Positions 19,722 through 62,865 of a stretch of 64,000 nt of DNA are shown piece after piece (positions within the stretch are counted from its first letter, which is position 1; every line of letters begins with the position of its first letter). The translations under genes and the position numbers were made by a program. The notes below the pieces were generated by a model, which was not told where the DNA came from, did not search any database, and worked only from the letters and a program-made list of their open reading frames with translations. Source of the stretch: an uncultured Peptococcaceae bacterium (lineage in GTDB: Bacteria; Bacillota; Peptococcia; Peptococcales; Peptococcaceae); the NCBI GenBank assembly GCA_947254645.1, contig CAMYDW010000001.1, forward strand, positions 63,433 through 127,432. Reading direction: 5' to 3'.

Positions 19722-19912
19722 ACAAAAAAACTCCGAAATGACAGAATCATTCCAGAGCTTTTGCATACACTTATCCTAATACATCTTCTTCTATCCAGAC
19801 TATACTGTTGGTTTTGGAATTTCACCAAATCCTGATTTGAACCTATGCCAAATCCTGCGCAAGTGCGCTCGCGGACTTTACCGCCAATCGGGAATCTCAC
19901 CCTGCCCTGAAG
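19722..19912 (-). ncRNA. FMN riboswitch (RFN element) with terminator expression platform, leader of the rib operon
   Basis: Reverse complement reads AGGGCAGGGTGAGATTCCCGATTGGCGGTAAAGTCCGCGAGC ... GGTGAAATTCCAAAACCAACAGTATAGTCTGGATAGAAGAAG, then CTCTGGAATGATTCTGTCATTTCGGAG followed by a T7 terminator; promoter TTGACG-17-TATACT upstream. Confidence 0.9.
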
Positions 19913-20068
19913 ATACTATGAAATTGACTAAAGTATAATGAAAAAAAAGTGTGCCGTCAAGAGAGAAATCTTCTTTCAAAAAATGATTTATGGTATACTG
20001 TTTAGTAAATAACCGTTTTTGCCTTTGTATAAATCAATAAATTATACTATGCTTTTTATCATGAAAGG

Positions 20069-30394: not shown

Positions 30395-30650
30395 GATATA
30401 TAAAGATGCAGTGATAAGGAGGAATCCTATTCGTCACATGACAGAGAGGGCGGTCTTGGCTGGAAATCGCCTATGGGAGATAGGTATTCTACCACCTTTG
30501 AGCAATGATGGGATAAACCATCATCGGTCGCTACCGTTACCAAGCACTGAAAGTGGATTAATTATTTAATCAATCTGGGTGGAACCACGGGAATGTTCGG
30601 CGCTCTCGTCCCTATTGGGATGAGGGCGCCTTTTTATTTTATAAAAAACA
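30395..30650 (+). ncRNA. T-box riboswitch leader of thrS (Thr specifier ACC) with terminator
   Basis: GA/K-turn AGTGA, AGAGAG stem-I element, T-box motif AATCTGGGTGGAACCACGG at 30572-30590, terminator GGCGCTCTCGTCCC ... GGGATGAGGGCGCC plus T-run; promoter TTGACG-17-TAGAAT. Confidence 0.85.
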
Positions 30651-33769: not shown

Positions 33770-34056
33770 TCTTCTCCTAGTAAGATAATAAAAATTGTTG
33801 ATTGCTCAAAAAATATTTGCCTATGATATTTGTGAAATATGAAAAGAAGCCTCTGAAAAGGGATTACTTGTGTATTTCGCATGAAAAAATAAAAAATTCA
33901 TTTGCTTGACAACCGTCTTGTACGATGATAACATTCTGGTATCATATGACTGACGGATAATGTGGAGCACCACATGGAGTATGATAGATGATAAAAGCCG
34001 ACCGTCTGGGCGAAAAGCCCAGATAGTCGGCTTTTTTGTGTGAAAAAGGAGATGAA

Positions 34057-51485: not shown

Positions 51486-52379
51486 TTAATGTCCATCAGG
51501 AAATTCATCATCATCAAGAGGCTCTACATGCACAATGACGCTGGCGTTTGGTGCTAATTTTTCCTTAATGCACAGCTCTATAAGATGGCTTAAATTATGT
51601 GCTTCACTAATACAGAGCGAGGGATTGACCTTGATGTGCATATCGACATAAGGGGCGTCCTTGGTGCCACGAGAGCGAATTTCGTGGATTTCCTTGACGT
51701 CAGGAAAAACGGCAGCACATTGACGGATATCTTCTTCCTCGAGGACCTTTCCATCTATTAGGACATGGCTGTTATCATAAAAGATTTCCCAAGCGGCATG
51801 GAAAATGAAACCAGCAACCACTAAGGAAATAATAGGGTCGATGACAGGTGGCAAGCCGAGCTTCACACCAACCAATCCGATTAAGACACCGATGGTGACA
51901 AAAATATCACTGGCAGTGTGTGAGGCGTCTGCAATTAGGAAGCTGCTGCCCAATTCATTGCCTTTGCGGCGTTCATAGGTGGTGACAAAAATATTGGTGG
52001 CAAGGGTCAAGAGCATGACCACCAAGCTGCTTGTGGTGACATTGATAATGTGTGGCTGTTGGAAAGCAACAATCGCTTCTTTGACAACCTTGATGCCGAT
52101 GCTCAATAAGAAGGCGGCAATGACAAGGCTTGAAAGGGTCTCGATTTTTTCATGACCATAAGGATGAGAAGGGTCATTTGGGGTGCCTGCAAGACGTACG
52201 CTGATCAAGCCGATGATATTGGAGGTGCCATCTGTCAGAGAGTGAAAGCCATCGGCTGTCATAGAGGTACTTTGAATCAACGTCCCGAAAATAATTTTAA
52301 TGGTGGCAACCGCCATATTAGCAACGAGGATCACCGCCAATATCCATTGGACCTTTTTTGTTTTTTCATTCATTGTCAT
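51486..52379 (-). CDS. Cation diffusion facilitator family divalent metal exporter (CzcD-like)
   Basis: CDF signature (HSLTDGTSN ..., HxxxD pairs), 6 TM plus C-terminal cytoplasmic domain; start at MTMNEK behind AAAGGAG. Confidence 0.85.
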   Translation of the reverse strand: MTMNEKTKKVQWILAVILVANMAVATIKIIFGTLIQSTSMTADGFHSLTDGTSNIIGLISVRLAGTPNDPSHPYGHEKIETLSSLVIAAFLLSIGIKVVKEAIVAFQQPHIINVTTSSLVVMLLTLATNIFVTTYERRKGNELGSSFLIADASHTASDIFVTIGVLIGLVGVKLGLPPVIDPIISLVVAGFIFHAAWEIFYDNSHVLIDGKVLEEEDIRQCAAVFPDVKEIHEIRSRGTKDAPYVDMHIKVNPSLCISEAHNLSHLIELCIKEKLAPNASVIVHVEPLDDDEFPDGH

Positions 52380-52385
52380 AATTAA

Positions 52386-52470
52386 AACTCCTTTTTTGAG
52401 GTAAAAAAAACACGAGGCAGTGTATGTCCTGTCCCGTGGTGTGTGCCACTGTTTTTCAACCCGACCTCTG
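52386..52470 (-). promoter_or_regulatory. Structured leader of the CDF exporter: intrinsic terminator (CACGGGACAGG-GACATACA-CUGCCUCGUG plus U8) immediately upstream of the RBS; candidate NiCo (czcD-motif) metal riboswitch
   Basis: Read directly: minus-strand transcript CAGAGGUCGGGUUGAAAAACAGUGGCACACACCACGGGACAGGACAUACACUGCCUCGUGUUUUUUUU with alternative pairings (GAGG/CCUC, CAGUG/CACUG, GUGG/CCAC); the NiCo family is known upstream of czcD-type CDF genes. Confidence 0.35.
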
Positions 52471-52651
52471 ATATGATATATCAAGTCTGCTCAGTTCATC
52501 ATTTATTGTTTTATAAGAGTGTATCATTAGGTCTTTGAGTTGGTCAAGCGTAACTCTTGGCGTTTTTTGAGGGAGAAAAAAATGATAAAAAGACGTCAAA
52601 AAACCTGCTATTAAAGCATTTGATGGAGTATAATAGAAACGATGAAGTGAG

Positions 52652-53557
52652 GTGAATTTTTTGGAAAGTAAGCAGAGGGAATGTAAGCAGAGGGAAAATC
52701 GAGCAGTGGCCAATGTACTAATTGCTGGAACGGCTTGGGGATGTATTGGCTTTTTTACCAGAACCTTGAGCGCATTGGGCATGTCGCCGTTGAGTATTTC
52801 GTTTTTTAGAAGTCTGGTGGCGGCGCTATTGCTCGGTATTTATCTTGGTATTTCGCAGCGTGACATTCTGCGGATTGCCATCAAAGATTTATGGATGTTT
52901 TTTGGGACAGGCGTGGTGTCGATTGGGGCCTTTAATGTCTTTTATTTTTACACCCAAACAAAAACAACCTTGAGTATTGCGGCGGTGTTGCTTTATACTG
53001 CCCCTTTTTTTGTGATTATGATGTCGGCTTTGATTTTTAAGGAGAAAATCACGAAACAAAAAATCATCGCTCTGTGTCTCGCCTTTACAGGCTGTTTGTG
53101 TGTTACAGGGGTCATTGGCGGCAAACTGGATTTGGTGCCAATAGCAGTTGTTTCGGGGATTGCCGCAGCCATTTGCTATGCCTTGTATAGCATCTTTGGT
53201 CGCATTGCATTGGCGAAATATCCAGCGATGACAGTCACCTTTTATTCCCTTTTTGTCTCTGGTATAGGGATCGGAGTGGTTTTCGCAGGCAGTGGTGCCG
53301 AAATGCCTGCCATCAGCATGAAGCTGATTGTATTTATTATTTTATTGGCGATTATATCCACCATGCTTCCATATATTTTCTATACCAAAGGGCTGCAGGT
53401 GTTAGCACCAAGTAAGGCGAGTGTTTTGGCCTTTGTAGAACCAATGGTTGCCACCATTCTTGGCATGGTGGTCATGCATGAACCGCTGACGCTTATATCC
53501 ATGCTTGGTATCATTTTGATTTTTCTAGGGATTATTGTTTTAAATAGACGTGTTTGA
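52652..53557 (+). CDS. DMT-superfamily (EamA-like) transporter
   Basis: 10 TM, two EamA repeats; start uncertain (GTG 52652 or TTG 52661). Confidence 0.75.
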   Translation: MNFLESKQRECKQRENRAVANVLIAGTAWGCIGFFTRTLSALGMSPLSISFFRSLVAALLLGIYLGISQRDILRIAIKDLWMFFGTGVVSIGAFNVFYFYTQTKTTLSIAAVLLYTAPFFVIMMSALIFKEKITKQKIIALCLAFTGCLCVTGVIGGKLDLVPIAVVSGIAAAICYALYSIFGRIALAKYPAMTVTFYSLFVSGIGIGVVFAGSGAEMPAISMKLIVFIILLAIISTMLPYIFYTKGLQVLAPSKASVLAFVEPMVATILGMVVMHEPLTLISMLGIILIFLGIIVLNRRV

Positions 53558-53571
53558 GAGGAGATTTAAGA

Positions 53572-53901
53572 ATGAATAAGGAACAAATTGAACCAGAATT
53601 GGTGTCTTACTTTGGCTCAGAATATGAACGTGTGCCACGTTTTTACATCATAGATGAAGAAGGGCAGGAACGTATTCACCCTGCTTTTTGTGATTCTCCA
53701 GAAGGGGATATTGATTGCTTTTATGTGCGTCAGCCATTGATGTTGAGCTTTTGCCGTTTGCGCACTGCTGCACGTTTACGCTATGATGAGGTCAATCCAC
53801 GTCTGTTCCGTGATTTTGACTCTCATTATCGTGAAATGACTCGAGATCAAATAGATGCCTACACACGCTATATTGAAGGAGACTTTTCTAAATTGGCGTA
53901 G
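53572..53901 (+). CDS. Hypothetical cytoplasmic protein (109 aa)
   Basis: ORF with RBS GAGAGGAG; no family recognised. Confidence 0.45.
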   Translation: MNKEQIEPELVSYFGSEYERVPRFYIIDEEGQERIHPAFCDSPEGDIDCFYVRQPLMLSFCRLRTAARLRYDEVNPRLFRDFDSHYREMTRDQIDAYTRYIEGDFSKLA

Positions 53902-54020
53902 CGACCTTCCATCAAATAGAAAAATACCTTTATCAAAGCAGGTGTGATAAAGGTATTTTTCTTGTTTTTTTGTCTAAAAGGACTATAATTTAATCTATCG
54001 TTCAAAAAGGAGGAAATAAA

Positions 54021-54917
54021 ATGAAATTAAAAGGGCCGTGGCTGGTGCTGCTTTGTTATCTGTTATTTGGTATATTTCCTCTTTATTGGAAATTGCTTTC
54101 CAATCTAAATCCTTATTTTATTTTAACTAACCGTGTGATTTGGTCTCTTGGCTTTGCGGTGATGATTCTCATTGTGCAGAATCAATTCGCGCACTTGGGT
54201 GAGATGCTTCATGATGCAAAAATGCGTAGGGTACTTGCTCTTAGTGGCTTTTTATTGGTCGTCAACTGGGGCACCTATATTATTGCCATCAATACCAACC
54301 ATGTGATTGATGCATCGTTGGCTTATTATTTGAATCCAATCATCTCGATTATATTGGGGCAATTCTTCTTTAAAGAAAAGCTGACTGGCTTGCAAAAGCT
54401 ATCAGTGGTGATTGCCACAGCGGGCGTGTTATATGCAGTCATCAGCTTCCATACAGTACCTTGGTTGGCGCTGATTATGGGTGGGAGTTTTTCTTTTTAT
54501 GGGGCACTCAAAAAAACCGTCAAAAATATCGATGGTGTGACCTCTCTGGCCATTGAAAATATAATGATGCTTCTGCCAGCAATGCTTGGCTTTGTCTATC
54601 TTTTGACGCATGGGCAAACAGCCTCGGGTAGCCCTGTGCTTTGGTGGCAATGGCTGCTTTTGCCAACCACAGGGATTATCACAGGATTGCCGCTGGTCAT
54701 TTATGCAAAGGGCATTCGTGATACAAGCTATTCCTTAAGTGGGATTTTAATGTACATTAATCCAACGATGCAGCTATTGTGTGGGATATTTATTTTTAAT
54801 GAGCCATTTACCCATGTGTATGCTGTTTTGTTTGGTTTTGTTTGGTGTGCGGTTTTCTTGTATCTATGCAGCACCTTGGGTCAGCTTTGGTGGCAAACCC
54901 ATAAAAAAGAAGGATGA
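54021..54917 (+). CDS. rarD: EamA-family transporter RarD
   Basis: RarD-like N-terminus (GIFPLYWKLL), 10 TM. Confidence 0.7.
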   Translation: MKLKGPWLVLLCYLLFGIFPLYWKLLSNLNPYFILTNRVIWSLGFAVMILIVQNQFAHLGEMLHDAKMRRVLALSGFLLVVNWGTYIIAINTNHVIDASLAYYLNPIISIILGQFFFKEKLTGLQKLSVVIATAGVLYAVISFHTVPWLALIMGGSFSFYGALKKTVKNIDGVTSLAIENIMMLLPAMLGFVYLLTHGQTASGSPVLWWQWLLLPTTGIITGLPLVIYAKGIRDTSYSLSGILMYINPTMQLLCGIFIFNEPFTHVYAVLFGFVWCAVFLYLCSTLGQLWWQTHKKEG

Positions 54918-54940: not shown

Positions 54941-55657
54941 TTATGCTTGGATTTTGTCCGCTTCTTCTCGCGGTAAGAAATGATATTTAACCATGGCATC
55001 CAGCACCTGTCGTTGACGCTGGCGTGCCAAGTTCATATTGGTGTTTGGTGCGTAAGCATTGGGGGCATTGGGCACCCCTGCTAGCAAAGTGGCTTGGTTT
55101 TTTGTGAGCTCGGAAGGCAAGGCATCATAATAGCCTACAGCGGCTTTATAAATACCATAATAACCATTGCCAAAGTAGATGGTATTAATGTAAGCTTCTA
55201 AAATTTCGACTTTATTGTAATTTTTTTCTAATGCCCGTGCCATGAAGATTTCAGCAATCTTTCGGTTCAGGGATTTCTCGTGAGAAAAGTAGAGATTTTT
55301 TGCCAGCTGCTGAGAAATGGTGCTGCCGCCTTCTGCGTAGCTCCCTGTTTGAATATCGGTTTTGATGGCACGCAACATTGCCCGTGCATCAATGCCTTGA
55401 TGCTTATAAAAACGATGGTCCTCAATAGCGATGACGGCATCTAAATAAATGGGATTGACCTCTGCAAGAGGTACAAAATTAGATTGTCCGTGCACCGATT
55501 GCATGGCGATTTCAAGAGGCTCTTCTTGGATGGCATGACGATAAGTCATATAGCCATTGCCAACAATCACTGTCGAAACGGTCATGGCAATACAGATAAG
55601 AAAAAATAATAGCATTAAGAACCAACGCTTGATGGTACGACGAAATGATCTTTTCAT
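54941..55657 (-). CDS. Monofunctional peptidoglycan glycosyltransferase (GT51, MtgA-like) with N-terminal TM anchor
   Basis: GT51 motifs EDHRFYKHQGID and GGSTISQQLAKNLY. Confidence 0.85.
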   Translation of the reverse strand: MKRSFRRTIKRWFLMLLFFLICIAMTVSTVIVGNGYMTYRHAIQEEPLEIAMQSVHGQSNFVPLAEVNPIYLDAVIAIEDHRFYKHQGIDARAMLRAIKTDIQTGSYAEGGSTISQQLAKNLYFSHEKSLNRKIAEIFMARALEKNYNKVEILEAYINTIYFGNGYYGIYKAAVGYYDALPSELTKNQATLLAGVPNAPNAYAPNTNMNLARQRQRQVLDAMVKYHFLPREEADKIQA

Positions 55658-55823
55658 AGGCCCCTCCAATAGATATGTCATGCATTTATTTTAACATACC
55701 CAACCTTACCATTTATGGTGTAAATGTACGATTTTTTTGAAATTTTTCTTAATTGTAGTATAATCACCCTATGAGTGCTCATATTGTATATGTTATAATA
55801 GGCACACAAAGGAGGATTGTTGC

Positions 55824-62792: not shown

Positions 62793-62865
62793 TGGACCGT
62801 CAGGGGATCGAACCCTGGACAACACGATTAAGAGTCGCGTGCTCTACCAGCTGAGCTAACGGTCC
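62793..62865 (-). tRNA. tRNA-Lys (anticodon CUU), 73 nt, CCA not encoded
   Basis: Manual fold: acceptor GGACCGT/ACGGTCC, D-arm GCTC-AGCTGGTA-GAGC, anticodon arm CGCGA-CTCTTAA-TCGTG, T-arm CAGGG-TTCGATC-CCCTG. Confidence 0.9.

Follow-up and report, generated by a model that had tools for sequence, protein, structure and literature searches.

A compact riboswitch of the NiCo/czcD class predicted to control a CDF metal exporter gene in an uncultured Peptococcaceae bacterium

Introduction

On the minus strand of a 64,000-nucleotide stretch of DNA from an uncultured Peptococcaceae bacterium, called the window throughout, a gene for a CDF metal exporter is preceded by a leader that ends in a hairpin and a run of uridines shortly before the start codon. 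This arrangement raises the question whether the leader is a metal-sensing RNA and, if it is, how it would switch and which metal it would report to the exporter gene. The original prediction had proposed a candidate riboswitch of the NiCo/czcD type. Riboswitches of this class were first described as sensors of Ni2+ and Co2+ (PMC9389577). In the general scheme of the class, metal bound at the junction of the aptamer keeps the switching strand within helices P1 and P4 and the terminator is blocked, whereas without metal the terminator wins. Other members of the class bind Co2+ and Ni2+, and also Fe2+, cooperatively at micromolar levels, and they answer metal with read-through.

We find that the leader very probably belongs to the NiCo/czcD class and acts on the CDF exporter as a riboswitch of the transcriptional ON type. 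What the analysis itself supplies is the match to the family, the folded structure with its conserved nucleotides, the way in which aptamer and terminator overlap, the folding energies, and the conservation of the element in an ortholog and in more distant homologs. That the RNA binds metal, which ligand it recognises and which way it switches are carried over from the family and are to be read as predictions, as is the start of transcription. The element is a previously undescribed instance of a class that is already known, as are its mechanism and the kind of gene that it controls.

Results

Covariance models assign the leader to the NiCo family

Searching the whole 64-kb window with Rfam 15 placed the NiCo model (RF02683) at this leader, on the strand of the exporter gene, at 39.0 bits, where the gathering score is 37 (E=3e-5, or 1.7e-7 when the intergenic region only was searched). 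The covariance-model check that had been proposed for the locus was thus positive, under a corrected accession, as RF01704 had been cited for the family. The yybP-ykoY model, named at the same time as a possible alternative, gave no match in 52330-52700 even at E<=10, and neither did any other riboswitch family in Rfam. The NiCo score exceeds the threshold by just 2 bits because three of the helices are short: P3 has 3 bp closed by a GNRA loop, P4 has 4 bp, and P1 is short as well.

The same leader was recovered with a leave-one-out model, R2, which was trained solely on elements that precede distant CDF homologs, with the window and its orthologs left out. With filters off, R2 gave the leader 43.1 bits (E ~1e-10), and the runner-up site in the 64 kb reached 12.5 bits. 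A further model, R1, used a hand-registered alignment padded with N; a MAFFT alignment of five aptamers had P3 and P4 out of register.

These searches also define the limits of the element. The interval first proposed, 52386-52470, lies in the right leader and misses the 5' third of the aptamer (52471-52504, which holds the 5' strands of P1 and P2) together with a promoter-like site at 52547-52518; the true element starts 34 nt past it. The features of the locus are collected in Table 1.

Table 1. Features of the exporter gene and its leader, in window coordinates
Feature	Position	Strand	Details and basis
NiCo/czcD riboswitch aptamer, four-way junction	52427..52504	(-)	Rfam RF02683
P1 5' strand and junction	52488..52495	(-)	A(C U G) 52495-52492, then A G C A
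P2	52463..52487	(-)	outer GACU/GGUC, GA bulge, inner UGAUAU/AUAUCA, loop AUC
J2/3 GG (52462-52461) and P3 GUU-GAAA-AAC (52460-52451)	52451..52462	(-)	covariance-model alignment, fold
J3/4 A52450 and P4 GUGG-CACACA-CCAC (52449-52436)	52436..52450	(-)	covariance-model alignment, fold
J4/1 and P1 3' strand, GGG A CAGG	52428..52435	(-)	belongs to switching strand
Intrinsic terminator (expression platform)	52403..52438	(-)	stem 52438-52428 with 52420-52411, then U8
Promoter-like site	52518..52547	(-)	-35 TTGACC 52547-52542, 18-nt spacer, extended -10 TG-A-TACACT 52526-52518
Ribosome-binding site AAGGAG	52388..52393	(-)	8 nt 5' of ATG; read from sequence; kept in ortholog L162
CDF metal exporter gene	51486..52379	(-)	ATG 52379-52377, stop 51486; 297 aa

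The A6-GGAG that follows the U tract here is similar to a putative motif, NiCo-AnGGAG, placed 3' of certain NiCo riboswitches. Searched separately to avoid masking by NiCo, Rfam returned nothing relevant in 52360-52452, a literature search on the name of the motif gave no match, and the resemblance was set aside. Elsewhere in the window, four other Rfam matches lie above the gathering score, namely an FMN riboswitch (106 bits; 19779-19918, minus strand), a T-box leader (97 bits; 30402-30616, plus strand), a ZMP/ZTP riboswitch (58 bits; 33936-34018, plus strand) and a tRNA (62793-62865, minus strand).

A four-way junction with short helices

On the minus strand the leader reads ...AAAUGAUGAACUGAGCAGACUUGAUAUAUCAUAUCAGAGGUCGGGUUGAAAAACAGUGGCACACACCACGGGACAGGACAUACACUGCCUCGUGUUUUUUUUACCUCAAAAAAGGAGUUUUAAUUAUG. 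Folded alone, the 78-nt aptamer adopts a four-way junction of P1-P4 as its minimum-energy structure (-13.2 kcal/mol), with a core of 68 nt from P1 to P1 (52495-52428). The 3' end of the aptamer is 47 nt from the ATG of the gene, which lies on the same strand. P1 consists of three standard base pairs, CUG/CAG, and one inner C-G pair; its outermost pair, A52495.G52428, is non-standard and is the sole such pair flagged in the covariance-model alignment.

Three helices had been proposed for the leader from the sequence, and only one of them belongs to this structure. The GUGG-CACACA-CCAC hairpin is real and corresponds to P4 of the aptamer (52449-52436). The strings of the other two, GAGG/CCUC and CAGUG/CACUG, are present, but both helices fall outside the family structure and outside every computed minimum-energy fold. 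In the ortholog L162, which is described below, GAGG is changed to GAAG, which disrupts GAGG/CCUC and keeps the P2 pair, and the CCUC that follows the U tract is deleted.

The invariant junction letters of the family are all present: GAGCAG, the GGG that separates P2 from P3, the A that separates P3 from P4, and GGGACAG. The crystal structure 4RUM, of an aptamer from an Erysipelotrichaceae bacterium, was reportedly determined by Furukawa et al. in 2015. According to a recent preprint, A9, G40-42 and G82-83 of 4RUM contact the metal (cobalt), and A12, A56 and G81 are partners in sheared G.A pairs, with A84 in the same combined set of junction purines (bioRxiv 10.1101/2025.08.02.668262). We mapped the numbering of 4RUM onto the family consensus by way of the strings G8-A9-G10, C39-GGG-C43 and G81-83-A84 given there (bioRxiv 10.1101/2025.08.02.668262). 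Matching GAgCAG of the Rfam consensus gives A52491 and A52488 as the counterparts of A9 and A12; G40-G42 and A56 correspond to G52462-52460 and A52450, and G81-G83 and A84 to G52435-52433 and A52432. Read through this mapping, the metal-contact and sheared-pair nucleotides of the class are all intact in the window element. Compared with shuffled sequence, the whole leader is not significantly more stable (z = -1.33), a value that is not unusual for a switch whose two folds compete.

An overlapping terminator and the predicted switch

The intrinsic terminator with its tract of eight uridines is borne out by the fold. Its arms, CACGGGACAGG (52438-52428) and CUGCCUCGUG (52420-52411), enclose the loop ACAUACA (52427-52421) and form nine pairs with one A.C mismatch (-12.0 kcal/mol), followed directly by U8 at 52410-52403. 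Between the end of the U tract and the ATG lie 23 nt, where about 20 nt had been given at first. A simple terminator scan overlooked this terminator, and the internal mismatch is probably responsible.

To form its 5' arm, the terminator draws on the final three nucleotides of P4, on the GGGA junction and on the P1 3' strand, and aptamer and terminator are therefore mutually exclusive. The layout is that of transcription attenuation, as had been suggested, and the terminator overlaps the 3' strands of P4 and P1 as it does in the characterised class. Across the full leader, the state with the terminator (-22.3 kcal/mol) is favoured by 3.9 kcal/mol over the state in which the aptamer is enforced (-18.4 kcal/mol), and before the 3' arm of the terminator has been made the aptamer is the best fold, in keeping with the competition between folds known for the class.

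The promoter-like site matches the hexamers at nine of 12 positions and has the TG of an extended -10; the transcript is predicted to start at about 52512-52510, a few nucleotides 5' of the aptamer. Combining these features with the family scheme, transcription would proceed from the promoter-like site (52547-52518), starting a few nucleotides upstream of 52504, and the nascent RNA would fold into the four-helix junction P1-P4 (52495-52428). At high free Co2+, Ni2+ or Fe2+, the metals known from other members, ions would occupy A52491, G52462-52460 and G52435-52433 and would lock the GGGA junction and the 3' strands of P4 and P1 within the aptamer. With these strands engaged, CUGCCUCGUG (52420-52411) would be unable to pair with them, no terminator would form, and read-through would allow the exporter to be made. 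When metal is lacking, the more stable terminator (52438-52411 plus U8) would displace P1 and P4, and transcription would stop 23 nt before the ATG.

Two other arrangements were considered and set aside. Pairing of the CCUC at 52400-52397 with the ribosome-binding site, as an anti-Shine-Dalgarno element, would comprise just three pairs by inspection, and this CCUC is deleted in L162. A start codon at TTG 52484, which would open an ORF of 332 aa, falls within the aptamer; on a 225-kb metagenome scaffold that carries the exact protein the gene is called at 297 aa, and the ribosome-binding site precedes the ATG at 52379.

The leader lies in a divergent intergenic region (52380-52660). The upstream genes, at 52652-54917, are on the opposite strand, and the nearest upstream ORF on the minus strand, 54941-55681, lies beyond them, which leaves the terminator with no upstream gene to end. 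The plus-strand genes of this interval are two EamA-family transporter genes around a 115-aa ORF that has no Pfam match, and the arrangement is kept in L162. The extreme 5' end of the divergent EamA ORF holds 2.3 copies of a 15-nt unit (GGAAAGTAAGCAGAG) on the plus strand (52663-52697), encoding ...KQRECKQRE...; the intergenic DNA next to this repeat is strongly diverged in L162. A terminator-like hairpin followed by a T run is also found on the plus strand of the intergenic region, at 52543-52561, over the -35 of the CDF promoter. It appears poorly conserved in L162 and is probably a chance occurrence.

The leader is conserved in an ortholog

Species-representative genomes contained no homolog of the exporter above about 53% identity. 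A protein search returned one homolog of 99% identity and one of 77% (L162), both in the same gene neighbourhood as in the window. Between the window and L162, the coding DNA is 73% identical and the third codon positions 48%. The region from the promoter to the ATG is 87% identical, as against 51% upstream of the -35, and the promoter-like site agrees at 28 of its 30 positions. Within the aptamer (88% identical) there are nine differences. Two fall in the unpaired 5' tail, three in the apical loop of P2 and three in the loop of P4 (52443-52441); the ninth, G to A at 52466, replaces a U.G pair of P2 by U-A. The L162 element likewise reaches the gathering score of the Rfam NiCo model, with 39.0 bits. 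By this comparison, the orthologous leaders are conserved far above the neutral level, with changes that preserve the structure. Neither of the two outcomes that were to count against the original prediction, a missing covariance-model match and a leader not conserved in relatives, was thus seen.

This pattern bears directly on whether the element still works. A score 2 bits above the gathering threshold, truncated P3 and P4 helices and an A.G mismatch at the outer end of P1 could all be expected of a NiCo riboswitch in decay or already without function, one in which the short P1, P3 and P4 are unfit for metal and the terminator is either a constitutive attenuator or inactive. We regard this as very unlikely. 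The compact form is kept in L162, where neutral sites have diverged by about 50% and the changes in the element fall in loops or preserve pairing, and the metal-contact nucleotides are all intact. A 3-bp P3 is also found in two elements from other loci (L081 and L082) that score 48-49 bits, and a strong constitutive terminator behind the sole promoter would silence a conserved exporter.

NiCo elements precede some but not all CDF homologs

The comparison of orthologous leaders that had been called for extends to more distant relatives. Immediately 5' of CDF genes whose products are 51-54% identical to the exporter, in the position seen in the window, lie NiCo elements that score 48-66 bits (L084, 66 bits; L001, 62; L082, 49; L081, 48), and further NiCo elements were scored at the CDF homologs of L166 (61 bits) and L171 (57 bits). 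Most of the close CDF homologs (L002-L011, L083, L085-L093, L164 and L170) are without a NiCo element, and at the Rfam gathering threshold most CDF homologs in L002-L020, L083 and L085-L100 had no such element before them. Applied to all 160 loci, model R1 added weak matches at L051 and L135 only. The association of NiCo with CDF genes is patchy, as is usual for riboswitches, and the comparative support had to come from look-ups of the exact proteins.

The many close CDF homologs that lack a NiCo element must be controlled in some other way, and the same could in principle hold for the window gene. A protein regulator would then act at the promoter, and the hairpin with its U tract would be an incidental terminator or a structure that stabilises the mRNA. 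We consider this scarcely credible here, given that two independent covariance models match the site with E between 1e-5 and 1e-10, that conservation of the leader goes far beyond neutral sites, and that there is no gene upstream for the terminator to end. Among the neighbouring genes, which are EamA transporters and an amino-acid ABC system, no regulator gene adjoins the CDF gene, in line with the earlier remark that no metal-responsive regulator is adjacent.

Alignment of 12 CDF-associated elements gave standard pairs in 87.7% of the cells, with 18 of the 27 pairs changed on both sides, figures that come from a model-fitted alignment and so lean towards the structure. As a control, sliding the 3' partners of the same 12 elements by 1-3 columns left 30-44% of the cells paired. 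In P2, seven of ten pairs are changed on both sides among the 12 elements. The GGGA string is invariant in all 12, and a terminator that overlaps GGGA and is followed by a U run is present in ten of 11 related elements.

Several further NiCo-like elements came to light among the loci. Those of Paraclostridium bifermentans (L168:1211-1292, 34.4 bits) and Romboutsia lituseburensis (L169:1378-1451, 25.6 bits) fall under the gathering score of 37, and a third lies upstream of the CDF homolog in L051 (2827-2910; 22 bits with our own model). All three precede CDF homologs and retain both GGG junction strings and a terminator that overlaps GGGA. In L168 and L169 the innermost G-C pair of P1 is replaced by U.U or A.G. 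The three may represent a variant subclass that standard annotation overlooks. In L135 (39-304 and 475-566), a GC-rich NiCo element (Rfam 37.2 bits, at the threshold) lies upstream of a distant CDF homolog, with no U run after it and with three tRNA genes just upstream; this element may have a translational expression platform instead of a terminator.

The exporter and the metal that it may handle

The product of the downstream gene contains PF01545 (Cation_efflux, 153 bits) and PF16916 (ZT_dimer, 65 bits), the Pfam domains by which a CDF is recognised, and scores 215 bits against the CDF model TIGR01297 (cutoff 82); its description as a CDF metal exporter is therefore correct. The more specific label is another matter. 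At the NCBIfam equivalog level the exporter reaches no cutoff, with 222 bits of the 460 needed for Cdf31, 138 of 420 for FieF, 133 of 500 for MntE, 87 of 408 for ZitB and 45 of 250 for DmeF, and so does not qualify as a zinc CDF of the CzcD/ZitB type. "CzcD-like" is accordingly sound as to the family and loose as to the member, as the sequence is closer to FieF/YiiP than to ZitB/CzcD. On sequence grounds the exporter is a CDF without the specificity of a named transporter, and "czcD" is here only the historical name of the riboswitch.

The nearest solved structures are those of YiiP/FieF, deposited as "ferrous-iron efflux pump" or as "cadmium and zinc efflux pump". Read off the alignment to Shewanella YiiP, in which we take D47, D51, H155 and D159 to be the transport-site residues, the predicted transport site of the exporter is H46, D50, H154 and D158. 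The exporter would thus have an H-D-H-D site, whereas that of YiiP is D-D-H-D. The H-D-H-D pattern is known mainly from CDFs of the Zn/Co type.

Within the same fold and the same switch, the metal sensed in the cell could be Fe2+, which would make the element an iron-overload sensor for a FieF/YiiP-like exporter in an anaerobe. Three czcD riboswitches were found to bind Fe2+, Co2+ and Ni2+ with similar affinities of ~1 uM, and Xu & Cotruvo (2022) argue that only Fe2+ attains such a free concentration in cells and is the physiological ligand (PMC9389577). The exporter itself points both ways. Its nearest solved relatives are YiiP/FieF and the NCBIfam FieF model outscores ZitB (138 against 87 bits), yet its top NCBIfam match is the zinc efflux model Cdf31 (222 bits, far under the cutoff of 460), and its H-D-H-D site departs from the D-D-H-D of YiiP towards the Zn/Co type. 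Moreover, the sequence does not discriminate among Fe2+, Co2+ and Ni2+, and selectivity in vivo is still debated in the literature. We hold iron to be a tentative reading that falls somewhat short of an even chance, and the assignment to the NiCo/czcD class stands with any of the three metals.

Discussion

The main outcome is one of correct annotation: the gene at 51486-52379 is best described as a metal exporter under riboswitch control, and a standard Rfam run would label the element. Its host is predicted to sense an excess of Fe2+, Co2+ or Ni2+ through RNA. The aptamer is a very compact natural example that is still under selection, and may interest those who build metal sensors from czcD riboswitches. 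With this locus, the genes under the switch also come to include a FieF/YiiP-like CDF whose site is H-D-H-D, which bears on the debate between iron and nickel/cobalt.

A more far-reaching interpretation would join several of these threads. The 68-nt core, with its 3-bp P3 capped by GAAA and its 4-bp P4, would be a naturally minimised aptamer under selection in an uncultured clade, perhaps serving as a cellular sensor of Fe2+ overload for a FieF-like exporter, and the look-alikes from Paraclostridium (34 bits) and Romboutsia (26 bits), which keep the terminator but lack the innermost P1 pair, would form a variant subclass with altered metal tuning that lies below the Rfam threshold. We think this combination, taken as a whole, improbable.

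Comparison with known systems places the element within its class. As far as sequence can tell, every feature that defines the NiCo/czcD class is present, and the differences are of degree. Members of the class lie in the 5' leader of a metal-efflux gene, for a CDF or a P-type ATPase, and the window element does likewise, in a host that is uncultured and known from metagenome assemblies only. The exporter can be aligned over its full length with the Shewanella and E. coli structures of YiiP/FieF (E 7e-26 to 4e-19), and has Cation_efflux and ZT_dimer across the full length in common with the YiiP/FieF and CzcD/ZitB CDFs. Among other switches, yybP-ykoY, which responds to Mn2+, is likewise a metal-sensing ON riboswitch with a competing terminator before metal exporters, but its fold and ligand differ from those of the NiCo element. 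With the RF02683 family and its 4RUM structure, the window element shares the P1-P4 four-way junction and the strings GAGCAG, GGG, CA and GGGACAG. It departs from the RF02683 consensus in having a P3 of 3 bp with a GAAA loop instead of 5 bp, and a P4 of 4 bp with a 6-nt loop in place of 6 bp and a loop of ~12 nt. Finally, in the NiCo/czcD class the 5' arm of the terminator is formed by the 3' strands of P4 and P1, and the same arrangement in the window element predicts a switch that is turned on by metal.
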